Source of the DNA: a bacterium
GTDB lineage: Bacteria > Patescibacteriota > Doudnabacteria > UBA920 > 2-01-FULL-46-14
Direction of reading: 5' to 3'
Length of the DNA: 64,000 nucleotides
NCBI GenBank assembly: GCA_030700065.1
Contig: JAUYKH010000041.1
Coordinates: forward strand, 4,659 to 68,658
The notes below the pieces were generated by a model. The model made no database searches. It was not told where the DNA came from and saw only the letters and a list, made by a program, of their open reading frames with translations. Shown one piece after another: positions 4,045 to 55,518 of this stretch. A program made the translations under genes and the position numbers. How positions within the stretch are numbered: position 1 is the stretch's first letter; each line of letters opens with the position of its first letter.

Positions 4045-5080
4045 TTTTCGGACAATTTCAATCGAAACTAGCCCGCAGGAGTTCACTGATGTATGGGTGA
4101 AGTTCCAGGCTACGCACGAAACAAGTCCTTACTATCTGCCCACGACCTTGGAATATTTTCGCGCCTACTCCGGGAAGCGTCTTGCGGCAGAACGAAGTTT
4201 TGTCGTGGTTAGGGGGGATGAACCGGTGGCATTAGCCTTCGTTCCGATTGAAGAGGTGAAGGGGAAAAGGAGCATCAGCATCGGACAATATTTTACCCTT
4301 GCTCCTCTCTGGGAGCCTCTAAAAAATCTTTTGGGTTTTGTTATGGCTGAAATTGACCGTATCGCGACAGAAACTAAAGCCGCGAAAGCAATGTTTCGCA
4401 TCGACCTTTTGCAGCACAAACAATATCCCTATAATTTTTTATTGAACTACGATTATTTAAACACCTCACTTTTGGGATATTTGGTTGACTGTGGGAGTCC
4501 GTCCTGGCGGCGCAACCACGAGCGCGCGATTCGAAAAATTTCTTCTAATCCCGATTATTCAGTTTATATTATGGATCAAACCAATAAAGACTATGTTGTT
4601 CACGAACATTACCGCCAATTGCATCACAAAGCCGCAGGCAAGGTAACTCGGAGCAAGGAAAGTTTTGATTTGCAGTATCGGATGCTTGAAGAAGGAAATG
4701 CGATTTTGGTTGGCCTTAAACACAAAGATCGATTTATTGCGTTTACTTACTTTATGTTTTATAAAAACGGCGCTATCTCTTTTTCTGCCGCAGATGATCC
4801 CGAATATAACGAGTTGCCATTGTATCACATTATCAATGCCGAAGGATTAAAGTATTTGCAAAAGCATGGGGTTTTAGAAATGGACATGGGTCAGCCGCTT
4901 AATATCTCAAACCAGCCCTTTAATTTTCCCGATCAAAAACAGAAAAATATCACGCTTTTCAAAACCGGCTTCGAGGGGCGGTTTATGAATGAATTTCGCG
5001 CAATTAAGTATTTCACCAAAGAAACGTTTTTAGAGGACCAGCAAAATTTTTCCAAAAGGTATCAAGAGGCATTGTCATGA
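4037..5080 (+). CDS. FemAB/BioF2-like GNAT-fold acyltransferase (putative)
   Basis: 347 aa, about twice GNAT length. The C-terminal half (ILVGLKHKDRFIAFTYFMFYKNGAISFSAADDPEY) resembles the Acetyltransf_6/FemAB family. Call made by pattern only. Confidence 0.4.
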   Translation: MNDFRTISIETSPQEFTDVWVKFQATHETSPYYLPTTLEYFRAYSGKRLAAERSFVVVRGDEPVALAFVPIEEVKGKRSISIGQYFTLAPLWEPLKNLLGFVMAEIDRIATETKAAKAMFRIDLLQHKQYPYNFLLNYDYLNTSLLGYLVDCGSPSWRRNHERAIRKISSNPDYSVYIMDQTNKDYVVHEHYRQLHHKAAGKVTRSKESFDLQYRMLEEGNAILVGLKHKDRFIAFTYFMFYKNGAISFSAADDPEYNELPLYHIINAEGLKYLQKHGVLEMDMGQPLNISNQPFNFPDQKQKNITLFKTGFEGRFMNEFRAIKYFTKETFLEDQQNFSKRYQEALS

Positions 5081-38836: not shown

Positions 38837-41092
38837 ATGAACGAGATGATCACAGCTTTTGAAACAAATATTGGGTACAAATTTCTACGCGTGATTTTAT
38901 ACGCGCTCCTTTTGACGCCTTTATGGATTTGGAGCGGTTTTTTGTTTCCTTTTATTACGACCAAAGCTTTATACTTCCGCCTGTTGGTGGAACTGGCGCT
39001 AATAATTTATATTCCACTCGCCTTGAAATATCCCCAGCTTAGGCCACGCTGGAATTGGCTCACCGGCAGCGTTTGGATTTATATAGGCGCAATTTTTTTT
39101 ACCAGCCTTGTTGGGCTTGATTTCAATCATAGTTTTTGGGGGACAGTCGAGCGCGGTGAAGGCATTATCACGCTGCTTCACTTTGCCGCCTATTTTACGA
39201 TTCTGCCCACGGTTTTTCGGACCACCACCGATTGGTATCGTTATCTATTTTCTGCTGTGCTGGTCACACTGGCCGTGGCCGTCTATGGGCTGGCTCAATT
39301 GCTGAATCTTCCCTTTACCGTTGAAACTGGAGGGGGGACGAGAATTTCCGGCACCATCGGCAACGCCGCTTTTTTTGCCGCTTTTCTTGTTTTTGGCATC
39401 TTTCTGTCGCTTTATTTGCTCAAACTGACCCCGTCGGGCGGCAAACGGTTGTTTTTGAAGTCAATATTCGTTTTCGAGTTAATTATGCTTTTTCAGTCGC
39501 AAACTCGGGGAGCCCTGGTGGGCATAGCAGTGGCTTTTGTTCTATACTTCGCTGTCAATTTTTTCCTTATCCATGGTAAGCGAGCGAGAATTATTCACGC
39601 CAGTCTGTTGGCCCTGCTGATTTTAGGCTCTGTTTTGATCTATACAAATCGAGGTAGCGAATGGGTAAAGGGAAATGCTACTTTGCGCCGCATGGCAACT
39701 ATTTCTTTAAGCGATGTTACCACCCAGTCTCGCCTGGACACCTGGAGCGCGTCCTGGAAAGGGTGGAAAGAGAGATTTTGGGGCGGGTATGGCTACGAGA
39801 ATTACGATATAGCTTTCAACAAACATTTTCCGGCTAGAATTTTCAAGGATCAAGGCAGCCAAATTTGGTTTGACCGGGCGCATAACGTCGTCCTGGATAT
39901 CGGCGTTACTTCAGGAATTTTCGGACTCCTGGCCTATTTGGGGATTTTTGGCGTGGCCGTCGCGGGCCTTTATCGCCTTTTTCGATTAAAGGCGGAAGAA
40001 GTGAAACCCCAGCAGAGCGTAATTTTAGCCCTTCTGCTTCTGGCTTACTTTCTGCAAAATTTATTTCTATTCGATACCCACGCCACTTATCTAATGTTTT
40101 TTGTCGCGCTGGCACACGTCGTATTTTTACAGGAAAAATATTTTTTTGCTGAAGATACGCGAATAATTCCAGCAGACAACCGCCGGTTTGTGGTCGCGGC
40201 CGGGTCTATCTTTGGCTTAGCCATACTTGTCGGAGCATATTTCATCAATCTAAAACCCGCAATGGCGAATATTGCCTCAATCAAGGCCATCACCGCCTCA
40301 AGGACCGGCAATTTCGAGCAGGCGAAAGTGTTATTCGAGCAATCACTTTCTTACGGCACATATATGGACCAGGAGATCAGAGAGAGGCTGGTTGATTATC
40401 TGCAAATAACCATTGGCTCGAACAGATCTCAAGAAGAAAAACAAGAAATTTATCAGTTCGTTTTGCAGGAGCTCAAAAAAAGCATTGAGGAGTCGCCGCA
40501 CGACGCCAAAAATTATCTATATTTGATCACTGTTTTAAACCGTTACTCTTCGCAGGTGCCCGCCAATTATGATCGGGTGATGGCGTTGGGTGAAAAAGCC
40601 CTTGAGCTTTCGCCGACCCGCCCGCAAATTTATTTTGAATTAGGATGGTCGTCATTGGCCCAGCATTATTATGATACGGGACTGGGATATTTCCTTACTG
40701 CGATTGACCTAAATCCCTATCCAAAGGAGTCACATTTGAATTTTATAACCGCTGCAATTATTGCCGGCCGCGAGGATCTGGCCGAACAACAAAAAGAAGT
40801 TTTAACCCAAAAAATCGGATACCCGTTGACTGCTGTTGATTATGATGCAATTGGTAAAGCCTACATTGCAGCGAAAAATTACACAAAAGCCGCCGAGAGC
40901 TACGGCGAAGCTACGGCTCTGGATCCTGCGAATTTTGAATATTTGGTGAGGTTGGCTGCCATTTACGGCGAGCTATGCGAACAAGAAAAAGCCGCTTCCG
41001 CGGTCTACAAGGCCATTGATTTGAACCAATCTTTCATCAAGGAGGGGAGAAATTTCTTGACCCAGGTCGAAAACAAATGCGACAAGCAGTAG
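38837..41092 (+). CDS. O-antigen-ligase/Wzy_C-family polytopic membrane protein with C-terminal TPR repeats (candidate O-oligosaccharyltransferase or ligase)
   Basis: About 10 predicted TM helices, a Wzy_C-like loop (QSQTRGALVGIAVAF), and a C-terminal ~300 aa of TPR-like helical repeats. Confidence 0.6.
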   Translation: MNEMITAFETNIGYKFLRVILYALLLTPLWIWSGFLFPFITTKALYFRLLVELALIIYIPLALKYPQLRPRWNWLTGSVWIYIGAIFFTSLVGLDFNHSFWGTVERGEGIITLLHFAAYFTILPTVFRTTTDWYRYLFSAVLVTLAVAVYGLAQLLNLPFTVETGGGTRISGTIGNAAFFAAFLVFGIFLSLYLLKLTPSGGKRLFLKSIFVFELIMLFQSQTRGALVGIAVAFVLYFAVNFFLIHGKRARIIHASLLALLILGSVLIYTNRGSEWVKGNATLRRMATISLSDVTTQSRLDTWSASWKGWKERFWGGYGYENYDIAFNKHFPARIFKDQGSQIWFDRAHNVVLDIGVTSGIFGLLAYLGIFGVAVAGLYRLFRLKAEEVKPQQSVILALLLLAYFLQNLFLFDTHATYLMFFVALAHVVFLQEKYFFAEDTRIIPADNRRFVVAAGSIFGLAILVGAYFINLKPAMANIASIKAITASRTGNFEQAKVLFEQSLSYGTYMDQEIRERLVDYLQITIGSNRSQEEKQEIYQFVLQELKKSIEESPHDAKNYLYLITVLNRYSSQVPANYDRVMALGEKALELSPTRPQIYFELGWSSLAQHYYDTGLGYFLTAIDLNPYPKESHLNFITAAIIAGREDLAEQQKEVLTQKIGYPLTAVDYDAIGKAYIAAKNYTKAAESYGEATALDPANFEYLVRLAAIYGELCEQEKAASAVYKAIDLNQSFIKEGRNFLTQVENKCDKQ

Positions 41093-41095
41093 GAG

Positions 41096-42472
41096 TCACT
41101 GCCCCTTGCCGGAGAGAATGATGTTGATGGTTTTTAGTATTATGCCGATGTCCAGGGCGAAGGAACGGTTCTTGACGTAAAATAAATCATACTGCAATTT
41201 TTTAAAAGCGTCTTTGGCTGACGCGCCGTACTGGAAATTGATCTGGGCCCAACCGGTGAGACCCGGTTTGACCAAATGCCGCTCGTTGTAGAAGGGGATG
41301 ATTGTAAGCAAATCCTTCACTAATTCCGGCCGCTCGGGTCGAGGTCCCACAAGCGTCATCTCGCCCCGCAGAATATTCCAAAATTGAGGAATTTCATCAA
41401 GCCGCATCTTCCGCAGCATTCGCCCGATTTTTGTTACCCGGGGATCATTATTGGTTGCCCACTGCGGTTTTCCGTCTTTTTCCGCGTCTGCGATCATGCT
41501 CCGAAATTTTATGGCCACAAATCGGCGACTAAGGTGGCCGGTTCGCAGCTGTTTGAAAAAAATCCCCCCCCCATCATTAAATTTGATCAGTAGAACAATC
41601 AGGGGGAACAACGGCAGAGAAGCAACCAGCGCGAGAGACGCAAACAATATGTCAAACAATCTTTTGAAAAATTCATAGACGTCTTTTTCGCTTTCAACCA
41701 GATTTTCCAGAAACCAAATATGGCCGATGGTGGTAACAGGGATTTTGCCGGTTAATTTTTCATAAAAAGCAGGCAAGTCACGGAACTCGAGCCGAAGCGA
41801 GAGGCTTTCGTACAGCTGTTCCACGAATTTTGGAGCGGATCGCGGGTCCAGGGCCGTGACTACTGTACCGATATGGTGTTCCCGCAGAAGTTTTTTTAGA
41901 TCGCCGAAGCCGTTGTAGATGATAATGCCGGGAAAATCATTTTGATCCAGGTAGCCGTCGTGTATTATCGCGGCAATTCGGTAGCCAAGCTGCGGTTTTT
42001 GGTTGATTTCATTGATCAGCTCTTTGGCCTCATCGTTTATCCCCAAAACCAAAACCTTGCGCAGGTGGGTCGGCCGCGAAACAAAACCGTTGTACCAATA
42101 GCGCCACAAGGAGAACAGCACGGTATAAACCGCGATGAAAACAAAAAAGACGGTTTGCGGCTTGATGTCGAAAAGTTTGTCGGTGAGCAGGTAAAAATAG
42201 GCGGTTGCCAAACCATAGTTGATCAGCAGCACCGCGATGATTCGGTTGTAAAAACCAATGTCATTGCGACTCGTTACGATGTCATAAAGCCCGCTGATAT
42301 AAAAAACCAGAAGCCAAACAGCAAACAAGACAGTAAACGGCGAGAGGTTTTGGAGCCAATTGTCTCGACTGGGCAATTCCCAATAGCGGATGAGCAGGGT
42401 CAGCCATAACGCGGAAAACAGCAGCAAGATATCCCCCGCGACGAGCATTATTTTTTTGAACCGATTAGGCAT
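41096..42472 (-). CDS. Initiating phosphoglycosyltransferase (bacterial sugar transferase, WbaP/PssY-like)
   Basis: C-terminal KRLFDILFASLALVASLPLF..RFVAIKFRSM..DEIPQFWNILRGEMTLVGPRPERPE is the Bac_transf signature. ATG 42472 (MPNRFKK..) is chosen, and the ORF track extends in frame to a TTG at 42538. Confidence 0.7.
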   Translation of the reverse strand: MPNRFKKIMLVAGDILLLFSALWLTLLIRYWELPSRDNWLQNLSPFTVLFAVWLLVFYISGLYDIVTSRNDIGFYNRIIAVLLINYGLATAYFYLLTDKLFDIKPQTVFFVFIAVYTVLFSLWRYWYNGFVSRPTHLRKVLVLGINDEAKELINEINQKPQLGYRIAAIIHDGYLDQNDFPGIIIYNGFGDLKKLLREHHIGTVVTALDPRSAPKFVEQLYESLSLRLEFRDLPAFYEKLTGKIPVTTIGHIWFLENLVESEKDVYEFFKRLFDILFASLALVASLPLFPLIVLLIKFNDGGGIFFKQLRTGHLSRRFVAIKFRSMIADAEKDGKPQWATNNDPRVTKIGRMLRKMRLDEIPQFWNILRGEMTLVGPRPERPELVKDLLTIIPFYNERHLVKPGLTGWAQINFQYGASAKDAFKKLQYDLFYVKNRSFALDIGIILKTINIILSGKGQ

Positions 42473-42560
42473 TATGCAGGGGATTATAGCAAAAATCCGG
42501 CATATTGCATAGATTTTGGAATTTGAAAAAAAGTCCAAAAAATGATATAATATTAATAAT

Positions 42561-42652: not shown

Positions 42653-44407
42653 ATGGCGTTGGCATCAACAGATCTGAAAAAAATATTGGTCGACCAAAAA
42701 GTTATTCAAGCGGAGGATTTTGAAAAATTGGAAAAAGAGGCGAAGGATAAGAAACAAACCGTCGCCAATTATTTGGTGTTCCGCAAAATCATCCCCGAGG
42801 ATCGCCTGGCCAAATTGGTGAGTGATTTTTTGGATGTCCCGGCGATTGATCTCACAAGCTCGGAAATTCCCCAAGACGTGCTCAAGGTCATTCCCGAGCC
42901 GATTGCCCGCCGTCATCAGGTCGTGGCTTTCAAGAAGAAAGGCAACGAACTCGATTTGGCGATGACTGACCCGGAGGATTTGCAGACGAGAGAATTCGTG
43001 AAAAAGAAAACCGGATTTGTCATCAAGCCCTTTTTGGCGACCAAAACCAGTATGGATTACGCGTTGTCGCAATACCACGGCAATTTGAAGGCGGAATTTG
43101 AGAATATCCTGACATCCAAAAAAGAAGGCAAGGGAGGCAGCGTCAAGACTGGGGAAACCGAAGGGGCGGATCTGGCAAAAATGGCGGAAGAGATCCCTGT
43201 CGTCAGAGTGGTTGACACACTCTTGGAGTACTCGATTTTTGAGGGGGCGTCGGATATTCATATCGAACCGCAGGAAAAAGAGGTGATGGTCCGTTATCGC
43301 ATTGATGGAATATTACACGACGCAATGACTCTGCCGAAGGTCATTCAACTCGCGGTCGTGGCGAGGATCAAAGTGCTTTCCAATTTGAAAATTGACGAAC
43401 ACCGCCTGCCCCAGGACGGCAGATTCAAACTGCAGACCGATGAGTATAACATTTCGTTTCGCGTCTCAACTATTCCGATCTTCGACGGAGAGAAGGTGGT
43501 GTTGCGGCTCCTGGACGAGGGGGCAAAGGCCCTGACATTCGAAGAACTCGGGTTTGCCCGGACTTCCCTTGAGGTAATCAAAAGGAATTTGGGCCGCCCC
43601 CACGGAATGACTCTCATTACTGGTCCGACCGGCTCTGGAAAATCAACAACCTTGTACACGATATTGACGAAGTTAAACGTCAAAGGTGTCAATATCAGCA
43701 CGATCGAGGACCCGATTGAATATCGTATTCCGTTCATAAACCAAATGCAGGTGAACCCCAAAATCGGACTTACTTTCGCGGTCGGTCTTCGCGCGCTTTT
43801 GCGGCAGGACCCGAATATTATAATGATCGGTGAAATTCGGGATTTAGAGACATCGGAGGAAGCCATCCATGCGGCAATGACCGGGCACATTGTGCTCTCC
43901 ACATTGCATACGAACAATGCGGCCGGTGCCATTCCCCGCCTGCTGGACATGGGGGTGGAACCTTACCTGATCGCTTCCACTCTGAATACCGTCATCGGCC
44001 AGCGTTTGGTCAGGAAGATTTGTGAGCATTGCAAAAAGTCAGTTTTGCTTTCCGAAAAAGAGGCGAAGAGTTTGTCGCAGGATTTTGACCTGGAAAATCT
44101 TTTGGAAGTGATGAAGCGGGAACAGGTTTTGGACAAGAAGCTCAAGCATATTGAAGACGTGGAATTTTTTGAGGGGGAAGGCTGCGAGAAATGCGGCCGC
44201 ACGGGGTATAAAGGCCGGATGGGCATCTATGAGACTTTGGATATTACTGAAAATATCGCGAAATTGATCATGGGCAGGATGACCACCGCTCAAATACAGG
44301 GGCAGGGCGTCAATGAAGGAATGGTGTTGATGTGGCAGGACGGGTTTATCAAGGCTCATACCGGACTGACTACGATTTCCGAAGTTTTAAGAGTCAGCAA
44401 GGAGTAA
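42653..44407 (+). CDS. pilB: Type IV pilus assembly ATPase PilB (GspE family)
   Basis: N-terminal GspE_N domain, Walker A GPTGSGKSTT, Asp/His boxes, and the tetracysteine CEHC..CEKC motif. ATG 42653 is preferred over the upstream TTG. Confidence 0.8.
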   Translation: MALASTDLKKILVDQKVIQAEDFEKLEKEAKDKKQTVANYLVFRKIIPEDRLAKLVSDFLDVPAIDLTSSEIPQDVLKVIPEPIARRHQVVAFKKKGNELDLAMTDPEDLQTREFVKKKTGFVIKPFLATKTSMDYALSQYHGNLKAEFENILTSKKEGKGGSVKTGETEGADLAKMAEEIPVVRVVDTLLEYSIFEGASDIHIEPQEKEVMVRYRIDGILHDAMTLPKVIQLAVVARIKVLSNLKIDEHRLPQDGRFKLQTDEYNISFRVSTIPIFDGEKVVLRLLDEGAKALTFEELGFARTSLEVIKRNLGRPHGMTLITGPTGSGKSTTLYTILTKLNVKGVNISTIEDPIEYRIPFINQMQVNPKIGLTFAVGLRALLRQDPNIIMIGEIRDLETSEEAIHAAMTGHIVLSTLHTNNAAGAIPRLLDMGVEPYLIASTLNTVIGQRLVRKICEHCKKSVLLSEKEAKSLSQDFDLENLLEVMKREQVLDKKLKHIEDVEFFEGEGCEKCGRTGYKGRMGIYETLDITENIAKLIMGRMTTAQIQGQGVNEGMVLMWQDGFIKAHTGLTTISEVLRVSKE

Positions 44408-44411
44408 CTAC

Positions 44412-45626
44412 ATTCCAGAATTTACTTACACCGCAAAAGACAGGGATGGGAAAACAGTAACCGATACGATTCAATCGGCTTCACGAGAATTATTGGGCCA
44501 AACTTTGAGAACCCAGGGACTTTTACCGACTTCTATTCGGGAAAAAGGGACTCGCGTGTCCCCCATCAGTTTTTTGAAGAATTTTTTAGGACACGTCTCC
44601 CTGCTGGAAAAATTAACTTTCATAAACAATTTGGCCGTGACAATAAGGGCGGGGTTGCCCGTATCGAAAGCGCTCAATGTATTGACCAAGCAGATGCCGA
44701 ACCATTATTTTCGAAAGATCATCGGGGAGATTGCGCATAATGTGGAGGAAGGCAAGACACTTTCGGAAAGCATGGCTCCTTACAAAAATGTCTTTACTCC
44801 GATAGTGGTGAATATGGTCAAGGTGGGGGAGGAAAGCGGCGAGTTGGATAAAACGCTCGAGTATCTCGGCAAACAGGTGGCCAGGGATTACAACCTCATC
44901 CGGAGGACGAGAAGCGCCTTGATTTATCCCGCGGTAGTTGGAGTTGCGCTTGTTGTCATCGGCTACATTATGTTTGCCTTTGTCTTGCCGAAATTGACCG
45001 CCACTTTTAAGGCGTTTGACACTGATTTACCCTTTTTGACAGTGACCATCATCAAGATAGTGGATATTGTTTCGCATTATTCAATTTTGATTTTGGTAAT
45101 GGCGGTAGGGGCGGTTTTTGCGTTTTTGTACTGGCGCAAAACTTCGAACGGGCGTATTATACTGCACCGCATCGTCTTTGCCATCCCAATCGTTAGGATA
45201 TTGGTCAAGAAAATAAATATGGCGCGTTTTACTATCATCTTCAGCGGCCTGATGCGTTCGGGAATGCCAATCGTGGAAGCCCTTCGCATCACCGCGAATA
45301 CCATGACCAATTTGTACTACCAGAGAGCCTTGTCTGACGTATCCGAAAAAGTGAAGGTCGGGGTGGATCTCGTCGTTGCTTTGGAAAAATACCCGAAACT
45401 ATTCACGCCGATGGTTACCGAGATGATTCAGGTCGGAGAGGAGTCCGGCACTATGGAAAAAGTCCTGGGAGAAGTCGCCAACTTTTATGAAGCGGACATT
45501 GATGATACCATGAAAAATTTATCATCGATTGTTGAGCCGGTTTTGGTCATGGTTATCGGCGCGGTCGTGGGAGTCCTGGCCGTCGGACTTATCTTGCCGA
45601 TTTATAGCATTGGGCAGAACATATGA
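44412..45626 (+). CDS. pilC: Type IV pilus platform protein PilC (GspF family), apparent ATT start
   Basis: Two GspF repeats. The conserved N-terminus IPEFTYTAKDRDGKTVTDTIQSASRELLGQTLRTQGLLP lies upstream of the first ATG/TTG/GTG in frame. AAGGAG (44399-44404) sits 7 nt before ATT 44412. Confidence 0.65.
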   Translation: MPEFTYTAKDRDGKTVTDTIQSASRELLGQTLRTQGLLPTSIREKGTRVSPISFLKNFLGHVSLLEKLTFINNLAVTIRAGLPVSKALNVLTKQMPNHYFRKIIGEIAHNVEEGKTLSESMAPYKNVFTPIVVNMVKVGEESGELDKTLEYLGKQVARDYNLIRRTRSALIYPAVVGVALVVIGYIMFAFVLPKLTATFKAFDTDLPFLTVTIIKIVDIVSHYSILILVMAVGAVFAFLYWRKTSNGRIILHRIVFAIPIVRILVKKINMARFTIIFSGLMRSGMPIVEALRITANTMTNLYYQRALSDVSEKVKVGVDLVVALEKYPKLFTPMVTEMIQVGEESGTMEKVLGEVANFYEADIDDTMKNLSSIVEPVLVMVIGAVVGVLAVGLILPIYSIGQNI

Positions 45627-46006
45627 AAAAAAACGGGTTCACAATCATCGAGACAACGATTGCCTTGCTTCTGGTCATGGTGACTATAACTATCTTTGGG
45701 GTCGCACTATCGAGTTTGCCTTTAACGAGAACTGCGCGCAATCAGAACATTGCCTATCACATCGCGGTAAAAAAAATGGAAGAGCTCCGGGATACGCAAT
45801 TTGCGTCTCTGCCCGCAAACTCGACCTTTGCGGACCCCGGACTTGCCAATTTAAGTAACCCCTCCGCAGACTTTACTATTGAAGACTACGCGGGAAGCAG
45901 TCAGATAAAGACAGCGACTGTGACGGTGCAGTGGCAGGAAGAAAGCCATACCCGTGAGGTTGTTTTGGAAACATTGATGAGCGATCATGGCTTGAATAGA
46001 CCATGA
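45623..46006 (+). CDS. Prepilin-type (type IV pilin/pseudopilin) protein
   Basis: MKKNGFTIIETTIALLLVMV has the class III signal with the G-FTxIE cleavage/methylation motif. ATGA overlap with the pilC stop. Confidence 0.6.
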   Translation: MKKNGFTIIETTIALLLVMVTITIFGVALSSLPLTRTARNQNIAYHIAVKKMEELRDTQFASLPANSTFADPGLANLSNPSADFTIEDYAGSSQIKTATVTVQWQEESHTREVVLETLMSDHGLNRP

Positions 46007-46645: not shown

Positions 46646-47995
46646 ATGAAACAAAAAAATCAAACCGGCCAAGCCTTAATCATTTCCGTATTGTTTTTGG
46701 TAGTCGTGCTGGTATTGGTCAGCAGTTTGCTGGATTTCGTGGGGTTGAACGTTCGCGGCACAAGAGGCGCGGTGGCAAGAGAGCAGGCGCTGCAGCTCGC
46801 CGAGGCCGGGATTGACAAGGCCGTCTGGCAGCTCAACCAGACAGCCGGGAGCTATATTGGGGAAACCGGCACGGCCCTGTCAACCGGAGTATTTGATGTC
46901 AATGTCGCGACCATCTCCGCTGTTTTGAGGGAGATCACCGCGACTGGCTACGTTCCGGATAAAATCAATACGATCGCAACCAAACAAATCAAGGTTCGGG
47001 CCACAATCGAAACCACGGGGGCAAGTTTTTTCTACGGGATTCAGGTAGGCGAGGGTGGCTTGGTGATGGGCAACAACACTTTTGTTGATGGAAACGTGTA
47101 CAGCAACGGCATCATTGACGGCGATAGCGGCGCGATTATCACGGGCGACGCTTTTTCTGCCGGCCCTTTGGGGCGCATTTTTGACCGATTACAAGTAAGC
47201 GGTCATGCCCATGCCAACCGGATTGATACAAATGTGACCATAGGAGGCAACGCTTATGGGCAAACCATGAACCAGGTTACTGTTGCCGGGAATGTCTATA
47301 CCAACTCGATGAGCAATTGCAGCGTCGATGGGGACGCTTTTTACACCACGCGTGTCTCCTGCACTGTTGGAGGGACTTCGAACACGCCATATTTGGGAGC
47401 GGCGGATCCGCCGATGGAGACCATGCCTCTCTCTGATGAGCAGATCGCGGAGTGGAAATCGCAGGCCGAGGCGGGCGGGACGATTATTGGGGATCTGAAT
47501 GTGCTGAATGGTTCTCAACAAAATTTGGGGCCCAAGAAAATTACTGGAAATATGCTTGTCGATAATAATGCGCGGTTGACAATCACCGGGAAAATCTGGG
47601 TTCAGGGCAATATCATATTTTCCAATAACGCGATTATTGAGCTTCATCCATCCTACGGCGACTTGAGCGAGGCCATTATTGCCGATGGTTTGGCAGACGT
47701 GGTAAATAACGTGGTGTTCCAGAGGGCCGGGCCGGCGAGTTATATCTTGATGGTCACAACTTCAGCCGATCTGAACGCTTTCGATATCAACAACAATGCC
47801 GACACGCTTATTGCGTACGCCGCGAATGGCGGAATTAATATCGCCAATAACGCCAACTTGCGCGAAGTGACGGGTTGGCGAGTGAATTTGGCGAATAATG
47901 CGTCAATCACTTACGAAACCGGACTGGCCAGCCTTTTATTCTCGTCCGGGCCAGGCGCGTCATGGACTATTCTGCGCGGGACATGGCGCGAATGA
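46646..47995 (+). CDS. PilX-N-like minor pilin / pilus-associated protein with Gly/Asn-rich beta-helix-like C-terminal region
   Basis: MKQKNQTGQALIISVLFLVVVLVLV is a PilX_N-type N-terminus. It is followed by degenerate G-N/D-x-repeat stretches (GNNTFVDGNVYSNGIIDGDSGAIITGDAF..). Confidence 0.45.
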   Translation: MKQKNQTGQALIISVLFLVVVLVLVSSLLDFVGLNVRGTRGAVAREQALQLAEAGIDKAVWQLNQTAGSYIGETGTALSTGVFDVNVATISAVLREITATGYVPDKINTIATKQIKVRATIETTGASFFYGIQVGEGGLVMGNNTFVDGNVYSNGIIDGDSGAIITGDAFSAGPLGRIFDRLQVSGHAHANRIDTNVTIGGNAYGQTMNQVTVAGNVYTNSMSNCSVDGDAFYTTRVSCTVGGTSNTPYLGAADPPMETMPLSDEQIAEWKSQAEAGGTIIGDLNVLNGSQQNLGPKKITGNMLVDNNARLTITGKIWVQGNIIFSNNAIIELHPSYGDLSEAIIADGLADVVNNVVFQRAGPASYILMVTTSADLNAFDINNNADTLIAYAANGGINIANNANLREVTGWRVNLANNASITYETGLASLLFSSGPGASWTILRGTWRE

Positions 47996-50495
47996 ATTTT
48001 TTGAACTGGTTGCCGCGGTCAGCGTAGTCTCTGAACATCCCGAAACTCGCCGAGGCCGGGGAGAGCAGACAAATTTTGCCCCGCGGGGTCACTTTGAACG
48101 CAATCGCGACCGCCTTTTTCATGGATGAGACGGCATATTTTTTTGTTTTCAACTTCGTTTTCTTGTCCAAAGCATTCCATATCTTATCGCCAGTGGCAGG
48201 AAATAGAACAAGTGACCGAAGCTGCGATGTTTTAATACGAGATGCAAGCTTCGCAAAAGACAGCCCTCGGTCAAATCCGCCGGCAATAAGTGTTGATACA
48301 TCATCACCCAAAACGTCCAGCGCGCGAATTGTCGCCACAGGGACAGTGGCCAGCGAATCATTGTAAAATTTAATTCCTCGAAATCTGCCGACGTATTCGA
48401 GCCGGTGCGGAAGGGTTTTAAATTTCCTGATAGCCTCCAAAGACAGCCGCGGGGCGATTTTGAAAAGTTTCGCTACCGCCATCGCGGCGGCCACGGCTTC
48501 GGGCGGAATGAGTTTGGGAAGATATTGAGCTTTGGACTCAATGACCCGAACTTTTTTGCTGCGGCTTTTCGAAGCAATTTGCGCCGGAATTTTATTTTTG
48601 GGATTAAAAACAACCGCATCGTCGCTGTTTTGGTGTTGGATAATCCTGCTTTTCGCCCAGGCGTATTTCGCAAAGCTCCCGTGATGGTCCAGATGTTCGG
48701 GAACAATATTCAGTATCACGGCCACGTGCGGGCTGTATCTGATATCCTCCAATTGCTGGCTTGAAAGTTCCATCACAAACAGGGTTTGATCGGTCGCACC
48801 CTCTAGATAATCAAGCGCGGGTTTGCCAATATTGCCGACCAATCTAACGTCTCGATATTTTTGCTTCAAGATCGAGTAGATGAGCGAGGACGTCGTGCTT
48901 TTGCCTTTGGTTCCGGTGATGCCGATAATTTTCCCAGGCGCGTTTGCGAAAAATAGATTCGTGGCCGTGGTCACGTCTTTGCCGCGCAGTTGCGGCAAGC
49001 CAGGCTTGATTCCAGGCGAGCGGATAATCATATCGTAGTTCGCAATGGAATCAAGGTAATTCTTGTTTATTTTTTTATCAGCAATGCCCATTGTGAGGTG
49101 CGGATAGTGTTTTTTCAAATACTTGAGGGTGCTTTGTCCCTCGCGGCCAAAACCCAGGATTAAAATCGAGGGACGCGCAACGGCTCGAAGTCTGCGTTCA
49201 TATTCCGCCGGCAGGAAATGATTTTTATTCCAGGAGCCCAGAACTTTATTATTTATATCCTTGTGTTTAACGAGTTCAAGTGCGAGCCTTATCTCTTCTC
49301 TCGTTGCCACGCACTCGAACGGCTTAATACCAGTTCCTGTCATTTGACGAATATATTTTTTTATTTGAGCGTTTCGGAGGAGATCACTGCCAAAGATTTC
49401 TATCATCTTTGATTTCGGCAAAAACGGCGCCAAAAGAAGATAAGATGACGCGCATTTGGCGCAGTGACCGCACCAGGTATTGGTTTTTTGTCCGACATTG
49501 CAACTGCGAAACGCGAGGCGATGCCTTGTAAAGTGCGAAAAAAGCTGGCTGATTTGTATTTCATAAAGCGGCCGCAAGAAACTGAAGTAATATATATTAA
49601 AATATTTATTTAAATAAGTATTAGAATATTCGCGAAACAGCTTTTCAAACGCAAAAGATTTGGAATACTGATGATTGATTTTTTTGCCTTTGTAAACGAC
49701 GTTTTCCTCATCGGCGCTTCGTTCATTGGAAGCAATAACGTTTTTGTAGCCGTGAATCGCGGCGGCCAGAGCTCCCAAGAAAGCCAGGTACGCGGAAAAA
49801 GGCGTATGGCCGTTGAGGTAGCCGGACTTATTGAGTTTGAGCAACTTGGAATCAATTGTCCTTTTAACATTGATAATGTTTTTATACCCGGCAATGCGAG
49901 CGTTTTCAATGGCGGGCTTCACGTTCCCCAAGACCATCACAGCTTGGCGTTTGTTGAGACCTTTTAGAATTTCTAATGTTACAGCCGAATCTTTTCCTCC
50001 GCCGGCCAAGATAAGATCGCCTTCGGCGATCTTAGAATGTAGAATATGGAATGTAGAATGTTGGGAAGAAACAATGCGGACGAAATCGGGTGTAGTGAAG
50101 TCTATTTTATTCTGATAGAAAAATTCACCCAGGCCGTTTAATAGGAGGTTTTTCCACCAGGTGATCTGCGCGTTGTTTAATTTTCCAGCCTTGATAACAA
50201 TCTCCCTCGGACACGCCGCTTTCCAGTAACTGATTAGTTCAATTAACCCAAGATTAAATACCAAGTTTCTAATTGAACTTGTCATCCCCGACCCGGTCGG
50301 GGATCCACTTGTCGGTATTACAATTTCCGGCCGAAAAACAATATCCGGTTCAAGCACAAACCGGAATTTAATATGTAGGTTGCGACCCAGTTGGCGGATA
50401 TCGAAAGATTCGTAAACCAACCGCGGATGTTTCTTGCGAAGCTCGGAGAGCGTCATAATAATTATGATTTTACCATAAAAATTGTTATTCCGCAC
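47967..50495 (-). CDS. murD: Fusion ORF: N-terminal PP-loop (SGGKDS-type) ATP-pyrophosphatase-like domain + C-terminal UDP-N-acetylmuramoylalanine--D-glutamate ligase MurD
   Basis: 842-aa continuous ORF with a GTG start. N-terminal LAGGGKDSAV PP-loop plus CGHCAKC cysteines. The C-terminal half carries ILGFGREGQS, GITGTKGKSTT and the MurD-type ending ASFGMFRDYADRGNQF. No plausible internal start separates the two halves. Confidence 0.65.
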   Translation of the reverse strand: MRNNNFYGKIIIIMTLSELRKKHPRLVYESFDIRQLGRNLHIKFRFVLEPDIVFRPEIVIPTSGSPTGSGMTSSIRNLVFNLGLIELISYWKAACPREIVIKAGKLNNAQITWWKNLLLNGLGEFFYQNKIDFTTPDFVRIVSSQHSTFHILHSKIAEGDLILAGGGKDSAVTLEILKGLNKRQAVMVLGNVKPAIENARIAGYKNIINVKRTIDSKLLKLNKSGYLNGHTPFSAYLAFLGALAAAIHGYKNVIASNERSADEENVVYKGKKINHQYSKSFAFEKLFREYSNTYLNKYFNIYYFSFLRPLYEIQISQLFSHFTRHRLAFRSCNVGQKTNTWCGHCAKCASSYLLLAPFLPKSKMIEIFGSDLLRNAQIKKYIRQMTGTGIKPFECVATREEIRLALELVKHKDINNKVLGSWNKNHFLPAEYERRLRAVARPSILILGFGREGQSTLKYLKKHYPHLTMGIADKKINKNYLDSIANYDMIIRSPGIKPGLPQLRGKDVTTATNLFFANAPGKIIGITGTKGKSTTSSLIYSILKQKYRDVRLVGNIGKPALDYLEGATDQTLFVMELSSQQLEDIRYSPHVAVILNIVPEHLDHHGSFAKYAWAKSRIIQHQNSDDAVVFNPKNKIPAQIASKSRSKKVRVIESKAQYLPKLIPPEAVAAAMAVAKLFKIAPRLSLEAIRKFKTLPHRLEYVGRFRGIKFYNDSLATVPVATIRALDVLGDDVSTLIAGGFDRGLSFAKLASRIKTSQLRSLVLFPATGDKIWNALDKKTKLKTKKYAVSSMKKAVAIAFKVTPRGKICLLSPASASFGMFRDYADRGNQFKKFIRAMSRAE

Positions 50496-50547: not shown

Positions 50548-50619
50548 GCCCTCGTGGTGAAATGGATATCACAACAGGCTTCGGACCTGTGGGTGGGGGT
50601 TCGATTCCCTCCGAGGGCA
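50548..50619 (+). tRNA. tRNA-Arg (anticodon TCG)
   Basis: Manual cloverleaf: acceptor GCCCTCG/CGAGGGC, D-stem GTGA/TCAC, anticodon stem ACAGG/CCTGT with loop CTTCGGA, T-loop TTCGATT, discriminator A. No CCA encoded. Confidence 0.7.
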
Positions 50620-55443: not shown

Positions 55444-55518
55444 GGTGCCTGTAGTTCAATGGTAGAACGCCGCTCTGTGGCAGCGGTCACGAGGGTCCGA
55501 TTCCCTTCAGGCACCCCA
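55444..55518 (+). tRNA. tRNA-His (anticodon GTG) with genomically encoded G-1 and 3' CCA
   Basis: 8-bp acceptor G(-1)GTGCCTG/CAGGCACC, D-stem GTTC/GAAC, anticodon stem CCGCT/AGCGG with loop CTGTGGC, T-arm GAGGG-TCCGATT-CCCTT, then CCA. Confidence 0.75.

Follow-up and report, generated by a model that had tools for sequence, protein, structure and literature searches.

We analyzed a 64,000-nucleotide stretch of bacterial DNA (positions 4,659 to 68,658 of contig JAUYKH010000041.1, assembly GCA_030700065.1; hereafter the window) and focused on its pilC gene, which encodes a type IV pilus platform protein and has the codon ATT (44412..44414; all features are on the + strand unless stated otherwise) at the position where most of its relatives have ATG. 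The host is an uncultured member of the Doudnabacteria, known as a metagenome-assembled genome (MAG), and the nearest database proteins of its PilC are from Candidatus Doudnabacteria, a lineage of the Candidate Phyla Radiation (CPR, or Patescibacteria). The sequence comparisons described below suggest, with a probability of about 0.68, that AUU is the initiation codon of pilC, from which a full-length PilC of 404 aa would be produced at reduced yield.

The pilC start region

The junction between pilB, which encodes an assembly ATPase, and pilC reads ...AGA GTC AGC AAG GAG TAA CTAC ATT CCA GAA TTT ACT TAC ACC GCA AAA GAC.... In this junction, pilB ends with the stop codon TAA (44405..44407), 4 nt before the proposed start of pilC, and a Shine-Dalgarno (SD)-like hexamer, AAGGAG (44399..44404), which doubles as the final two sense codons of pilB (AAG GAG, encoding K-E), lies 7 nt before ATT. 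The pilC frame, which includes ATT, is open from 44391, following an in-frame TAA at 44388-90, to the stop codon at 45624-45626, and the seven in-frame codons before ATT (GAG TCA GCA AGG AGT AAC TAC) do not include any canonical start. Translation from ATT yields IPEFTYTAKDRDGKTVTDTIQSASRELLGQTLRTQGLLP..., in agreement with the initial annotation, and the first canonical in-frame start, the TTG of codon 28 (44493..44495), is found exactly 81 nt downstream of ATT, inside the N-domain helix of residues 25-34. It is followed by the GTG of codon 49 (44556..44558), which is the start in the NCBI annotation. Thus, the positions of AAGGAG and ATT, their 7-nt spacing and the location of the conserved PilC N-terminus upstream of every canonical start are all as described in the initial annotation. 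It should be noted that the bare motif AAGGAG-N7-ATT occurs twice in the window, compared to 0.76 expected, and that 18 of 100 shuffles also reach two. The motif by itself is not beyond chance; only its placement with respect to the orthologues makes it significant.

The initial annotation had also raised the question of whether ATT was a base-call error for ATG. A contig (L173) of the independent Logan assembly of SRR13727534 matches the window at 100% identity across 7134 nt, ATT included, and a contig (L001) of a second NCBI MAG (GCA_034374505.1) has the same ATT while differing from the window at 5 of 3099 positions. These 5 single-nucleotide polymorphisms in 3.1 kb show that the second MAG represents a population distinct from that of the window. 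A sequencing or assembly artefact that conceals a true G would account for a single-base difference from the relatives, and MAG consensus sequences can contain errors. Given that ATT is common to three assemblies from two assembler types, one of which comes from a distinct population, such an error is very unlikely and effectively excluded, and the base is genuine. JGI metagenomes were scanned for exact matches to the junction, the third base of the start codon being left as N so that ATG and ATT alleles of one strain could be recovered; the scan returned 0 matches and hence no population information.

Start codons and N-termini of the relatives

In alignments with the NCBIfam profiles of GspF, Thermus-type PilC and XpsF, query residues 2-4 fall on profile positions 1-2, which places the ATT codon at the initiator Met of these profiles. 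The orthologues begin with MSEFIYTAK (92% identity), MPEFIYTAK (89%), MSRFVYTAK (80%) and MPEFTYTAR (70%), those at 92 and 80% identity also being 404 aa long, and all full-length orthologues open with M-[PSA]-x-[FY]-x-Y at the codon homologous to ATT. At the DNA level, the three nearest relatives (L002, L094, and L091) have ATG in place of the ATT of the window. To map the codon homologous to residue 1 more widely, pilC loci were gathered from GTDB species representatives and JGI metagenomes, which provided 125 distinct 5' sequences. The start-site codon is ATG in 111 of them, TTG in 4 and GTG in 3, while ATC is the only start-site codon in 6 and ATT the only one in 1, the latter being the window lineage. 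The orthologues therefore do possess the N-terminal extension on which the initial annotation relied, and ATT falls on the start Met both of the family profiles and of 111 of the 125 distinct relatives. In the window pilC, neither ATG, GTG nor TTG is found at or near the position of the family N-terminus, and conserved coding sequence lies upstream of the first canonical start. The non-canonical codons found at the start site across all relatives are ATT and ATC only, never ACG, AAG, AGG, ATA or CTG. ATT and ATC belong to the near-cognate group for which measurable initiation is retained in E. coli.

The ATT codon is found only in the window, L173 and L001, which together form a lineage of at least 99.8% identity, while ATG is found in the nearest relatives, which are 84% identical at the DNA level. 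The suggestion of the initial annotation that AUU initiation here would be regulatory, as is usual for such starts and by analogy to infC of E. coli, is thus unsupported, because ATT is not conserved beyond the window lineage. From its distribution, ATT looks less like a conserved regulatory device than like a G-to-T substitution that is recent and has been tolerated. Conservation of a non-canonical codon across species, which is the hallmark of regulatory cases such as infC and ccpN, is found only in a separate clade in which the codon is ATC.

The region encoded between ATT and the canonical starts corresponds to an N-terminal mini-domain. In an AlphaFold2 model, residues 1-45 (44412..44546) are predicted to fold as beta-beta-alpha-beta, with a predicted local distance difference test score of 83-87 for residues 1-40, and are followed by a low-confidence linker of residues 46-58. 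This mini-domain, with its M-P-x-F-x-Y-x-A motif, is the T2SSF_N domain of the orthologues, which carry a precomputed PF28597 (T2SSF_N) annotation, and it is present in the window PilC if the open reading frame (ORF) is read from 44412. All six invariant columns in the first 45 residues (Y6, A8, G13, L32, R33, and P39) are kept in the window PilC. Judging from the model, initiation at either downstream codon would cut or remove the mini-domain.

The window pilC ORF is intact, with neither indels nor stops. Changes on the window branch were polarized with the three ATG-bearing relatives; codons 2-48 have accumulated 6 synonymous and 1 non-synonymous changes, and the rest of pilC 48 and 17, respectively. 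Under neutrality, about three quarters of the changes are expected to be non-synonymous. Given this expectation, the 6:1 synonymous excess suggests that codons 2-48 have been under purifying selection for most of the window branch, although the date of the ATG-to-ATT change on that branch is not fixed by these counts. Elsewhere in the window, ORFs preceded by extended open leaders, in some of which an SD-like motif is followed by a near-cognate codon, were flagged as potential further cases of non-canonical starts, and 10 of them were put through Pfam. Eight had Pfam matches, with domains that in all eight begin after the first canonical start, and pilC was the sole case found among the ORFs examined in this way.

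A second group of pilC genes with a non-canonical start-site codon is found in a Paceibacterota-like clade, in which ATC occupies the start site in five distinct sequences (L058, L172, L063, L064/L170, and L174). The ATC codons are located at 2501-2503 of L058, 2501-2503 of L063 and 2492-2494 of L064 (identical to L170), and in L174 the ATC precedes the called start (1501) by 57 nt. The first ATG comes 19 codons after ATC, with the conserved sequence I-A-x-Y-x-Y-[KR]-A-K-S-[LF]-K-G encoded ahead of it, and three members of the clade have in-frame stops 2-4 codons upstream of ATC. The database clusters that are at least 78% identical to L058 are all truncated calls (350-388 aa), while the outgroups that are at most 65% identical to L058 are full length and start with ATG GCx (M-A-[ST]-Y). 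Pairwise synonymous divergence among L058, L063 and L064 is 0.29-0.74, and the codons that precede the first ATG show a ratio of non-synonymous to synonymous divergence (pN/pS) of 0.25-0.32, with no indels. These comparisons indicate that a pilC with a predicted AUH start (AUA, AUC, or AUU) has been kept through speciation in this clade, and its persistence makes a functional AUU start in the window pilC plausible.

In addition to this clade, a Doudnabacteria-like pilC (P0067; ENA ERZ4903072 k141_3145751) has ATC GCA instead of ATG CCA, with ATC at 157-159 of the contig (L093) and downstream of AAGGGG. Its sequence is a mosaic, in that codons 2-33 are nearly identical to those of another locus, L135 (1 non-synonymous and 0 synonymous differences), while the synonymous divergence (pS) over the rest of the gene is ~0.77; it is either a recombinant or an assembly chimera. 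A near-identical sequence is found in only one other contig, L098, which starts 13 nt past the ATC. This case was down-weighted because it is a single, mosaic contig and because L098 begins past the ATC.

It is conceivable, though we consider it unlikely, that weak AUH starts on pilC are a recurrent and selected means by which CPR bacteria maintain a low PilC:PilB ratio in type IV pilus operons or make PilC output sensitive to initiation factor 3 (IF3) and growth state. If so, AUH codons would have arisen three times independently at a single position in this set of 125 sequences, namely in the window (ATT), in the ATC clade and in the mosaic contig (ATC), and CPR genomes would contain a hidden class of AUH-initiated genes that are systematically truncated by current gene callers.

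Proposed initiation at AUU and alternative explanations

In this lineage, the third base of the ancestral pilC ATG has changed from G to T. In the proposed mechanism, initiator tRNA would read AUU in the peptidyl site, so that PilC would be made at its full length of 404 aa with an N-terminal formyl-methionine. In E. coli, initiation at AUU, AUC, AUA, and CUG reaches 1-2% of that at AUG, and the proteins made from the tested non-canonical codons, AUC among them, had N-terminal Met (10.1101/063800). In S. aureus, conserved AUU and AUA starts yield ~10% of the AUG level (PMC13009471). By analogy, the efficiency of AUU in pilC may be low, comparable to the 1-2% of E. coli or, as in S. aureus with a strong SD, to ~10%. 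The ribosome would probably be delivered locally, through termination-reinitiation or coupling with pilB, which terminates 4 nt upstream, and AAGGAG 7 nt upstream may also help. We infer that the net effect would be less PilC per pilB-pilC transcript.

The contribution of the SD-like hexamer was assessed from SD use in the window. SD-like 4-mers (GGAG, GAGG, or AGGA) are found at -18 to -4 of 10 of 61 likely window genes (~16%), compared to a background of 8%; the figure is approximate, as the survey took the first canonical start of each gene (e.g., the genes starting at 190, 1295, 2312, and 13371). Most starts in the window are preceded by A/T-rich sequence, and SD use looks low in this genome. 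AAGGAG is not enriched, with 33 copies in the window compared to 31 expected. At the AAGGAG site, the relatives have AAGGAA, AAAGAA or AAGGAG, and the end of pilB is conserved as ...SKE followed by the stop codon, which suggests that coding for PilB also constrains the hexamer. Of the perfect SD proposed in the initial annotation, the hexamer and its 7-nt spacing stand, but in this sequence context they are weak evidence for initiation. Among the features of the context, the distance of only 4 nt from the pilB stop codon to ATT is better supported. A stop codon is also found 0-10 nt before the pilC ATG in many relatives, and in native gene pairs termination-reinitiation has been found to work at very short intergenic distances and to decay by ~14-38 nt (PMC10666635). 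The spacing is consistent with the translational coupling to pilB that was proposed initially.

Several points weigh against initiation at AUU. The proposal is derived from sequence. The low SD usage, together with the absence of the 16S anti-SD from the window, makes any help from AAGGAG uncertain. A weak 5-bp hairpin could form at 44401-44416 between GGAGU, which belongs to the SD-like motif, and AUUCC, consisting of the start codon and the following 2 nt; the folding energy of the mRNA around the start is not beyond chance relative to shuffled controls (z = 0.88). Finally, the ATT lineage is at least 99.8% identical, and the mutation may postdate the signature of selection.

This last point bears on two alternatives, both of which we regard as improbable. 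According to the first, ATT is a start-loss mutation, and pilC was recently inactivated or made strongly hypomorphic and is becoming a pseudogene. In favor of this alternative, all near relatives have ATG, AUU would have only ~1-2% of AUG activity if CPR ribosomes behaved as those of E. coli, and the ATT allele is phylogenetically very shallow. However, the allele is common to at least two distinguishable populations, pilC has no second lesion, and pilB and three downstream pilus ORFs are uninterrupted. In addition, the substitution led to one of the few codons that keep initiator activity, only ATT and ATC being seen as non-canonical codons among the relatives, and ATC alleles are stably inherited in another clade.

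According to the second, which we consider slightly less probable still, translation starts at TTG 44493 or GTG 44556, as in the public annotations, so that PilC is N-terminally truncated and the conserved upstream codons are a relic that has not yet decayed. Both codons are canonical starts, and the GTG of codon 49 is preceded by AAAGGGA and located just past the N-domain in the linker of residues 46-58, where the model makes a clean deletion of the domain structurally conceivable. Given the young age of the ATT lineage, a relic could also still appear intact. The TTG of codon 28, on the other hand, has no SD-like motif upstream and would cut the helix of residues 25-34, and the N-domain is found, with its invariant residues, in essentially all relatives. 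Furthermore, the 6:1 ratio of synonymous to non-synonymous changes on the window branch argues for continued translation of these codons, and the equivalent upstream codons of the ATC clade appear to have been under purifying selection over deep divergence.

A PilB-PilC fusion made by +1 frameshifting or stop bypass at AAG-GAG-TAA-C, for which a separate start would not be needed, was rejected as highly improbable: the reading frame of pilC is +1 with respect to that of pilB and the SD-like element directly before the stop loosely recalls prfB, but there is no slippery P-site codon, as GAG cannot re-pair in the +1 frame as AGU, the longest of the homologues listed is 434 aa and none is of fusion length, and the relatives have separate ATG starts at the same spacing.

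Gene neighborhood, annotation and comparison with known non-canonical starts

The full-length pilC coding sequence (44412..45626; 404 aa plus stop) encodes a T2SSF-family platform protein. Its product matches Pfam T2SSF in two stretches (E = 1.4e-57), corresponding to the two PF00482 repeats of the PilC/GspF family, covers the NCBIfam GspF, PilC and HofC profiles end to end, with scores below the equivalog cut-offs, and matches PilC of M. xanthus (3jc8) over residues 3-401 (E = 2e-55). Directly upstream, pilB (42653..44407; 584 aa from ATG 42653) encodes the assembly ATPase of a type II secretion or type IV pilus system; its product matches T2SSE of Pfam (E = 1.4e-124) as well as MshEN, which identifies it as a PilB/GspE-type ATPase. 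The 584-aa call is also found on the identical Logan contig, while an alternative start at TTG 42623 would give 594 aa. Downstream of pilC are pilin-like ORFs with G-F-T-x-x-E N-termini, the first of which (45623..46006; 127 aa) has an N-terminal GFTIIE motif and homologous neighbors that carry N_methyl. The order of pilB, pilC and pilin-like gene is also found in related loci. These genes form a compact type IV pilus operon, which is tightly packed given that the ATG of the pilin-like gene overlaps the pilC stop as ATGA.

The sequence immediately before the pilus operon encodes a Bac_transf sugar transferase on the minus strand (41096-42538). It is preceded by an ORF for a multi-pass membrane protein of 751 aa (38837-41092), the counterpart of which in locus L006 has Wzy_C and TPR matches, and by a long co-directional cluster (142-38800, +) of sugar-modification and glycan-biosynthesis genes, including those for a DegT-type aminotransferase, a GFO/IDH/MocA oxidoreductase, a cytidylyltransferase and a sulfotransferase. 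Beyond the pilus operon, an unusually long Mur-ligase-domain protein (842 aa) is encoded on the minus strand (47967-50495), and in this protein ~570 residues without a Pfam match precede the ligase domains. Two tRNA genes are located at 50548-50619 (+) and 55445-55515 (+). They were the only hits of an Rfam scan of the window, in which 16S rRNA was not present.

The public calls of the window pilC are both N-terminally truncated, the NCBI annotation (P0003; MDP3994170.1 and MDZ4243747.1, from two MAG submissions) having 356 aa from GTG 44556 and the call on the Logan contig (P0121) 377 aa from TTG 44493. All public protein calls of the ATC clade (P0125-P0129) are truncated in the same manner. 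Four other short calls (P0056, P0068, P0070, and P0131) were considered as further non-canonical cases and rejected, as each has an ordinary ATG that had been skipped by gene callers. Several CPR pilC genes with ATG starts have been called 10-78 codons too short (at 2421 of L006, 2444 of L007, ATG ~1270 of L092 and ATG ~1471 of L175), and several such relatives were miscalled because they lack an SD. Thus, N-terminal miscalling appears to be common in the PilC family.

The pilus machines of CPR bacteria are considered to play a central part in DNA uptake and in the episymbiotic way of life of these bacteria. Comparative and structural work on CPR pili would inherit wrong N-termini from the truncated calls, and the practical value of our results lies in the correction of annotation. 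A wider interest may lie in the recurrence of putative AUH starts at CPR pilC. Together, the window pilC and the ATC clade extend the natural cases beyond model organisms by one credible AUU start and one conserved AUC start, and they provide a simple test case of how SD-poor CPR ribosomes deal with weak start codons and translational coupling. The mechanism of AUH initiation itself is rare but already known, and it escapes annotation pipelines; our literature search found no paper that links Patescibacteria with ATT start codons.

Among the known cases, infC of E. coli, which encodes IF3, is similar to the window pilC in that AUU replaces AUG, an SD precedes it, efficiency is reduced and the codon is decoded by initiator tRNA, as we infer for pilC. 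In infC, however, AUU is conserved across enterobacteria and part of an autoregulatory loop in which IF3 discriminates against AUU, whereas pilC encodes a pilus platform protein, its ATT is restricted to one lineage and no feedback logic is evident. The gene under AUU is pilC in the window, in which infC was not identified in the part surveyed, so that IF3 autoregulation of the infC type does not apply. Another case is pcnB of E. coli, which encodes poly(A) polymerase I and in which AUU reportedly serves simply to keep protein output low (Binns and Masters, 2002, as cited in 10.1101/063800 and PMC13009471). The start codon of pcnB also varies by lineage, its orthologues in other phyla using AUG, GUG or UUG; it differs from pilC in protein family and in that its AUU was verified experimentally, whereas that of pilC is predicted.

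In S. aureus, cvfC1 (AUU), ccpN (AUA), and infC (AUA) combine weak AUH codons with strong SD motifs, and these starts were missed by annotation until initiation-site profiling (PMC13009471). They are conserved between species of an SD-dependent Firmicute, whereas the window genome is SD-sparse and its ATT is found in one lineage. A further comparison is with pilC of the ATC clade, which shares with the window pilC the gene, the codon position, a conserved N-terminus upstream of the first canonical start and truncated public calls (385-388 aa), and which differs in having ATC, in occurring in several species-level genomes (pS up to 0.74), in the lack of an SD-like motif and in the distance from the pilB stop codon to the start, which is ~12-20 nt compared to 4 nt in the window. 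By analogy, the window pilC would resemble pcnB, infC, cvfC1 and ccpN in having a weak AUH start that limits protein output, rather than a feedback device of the infC type.

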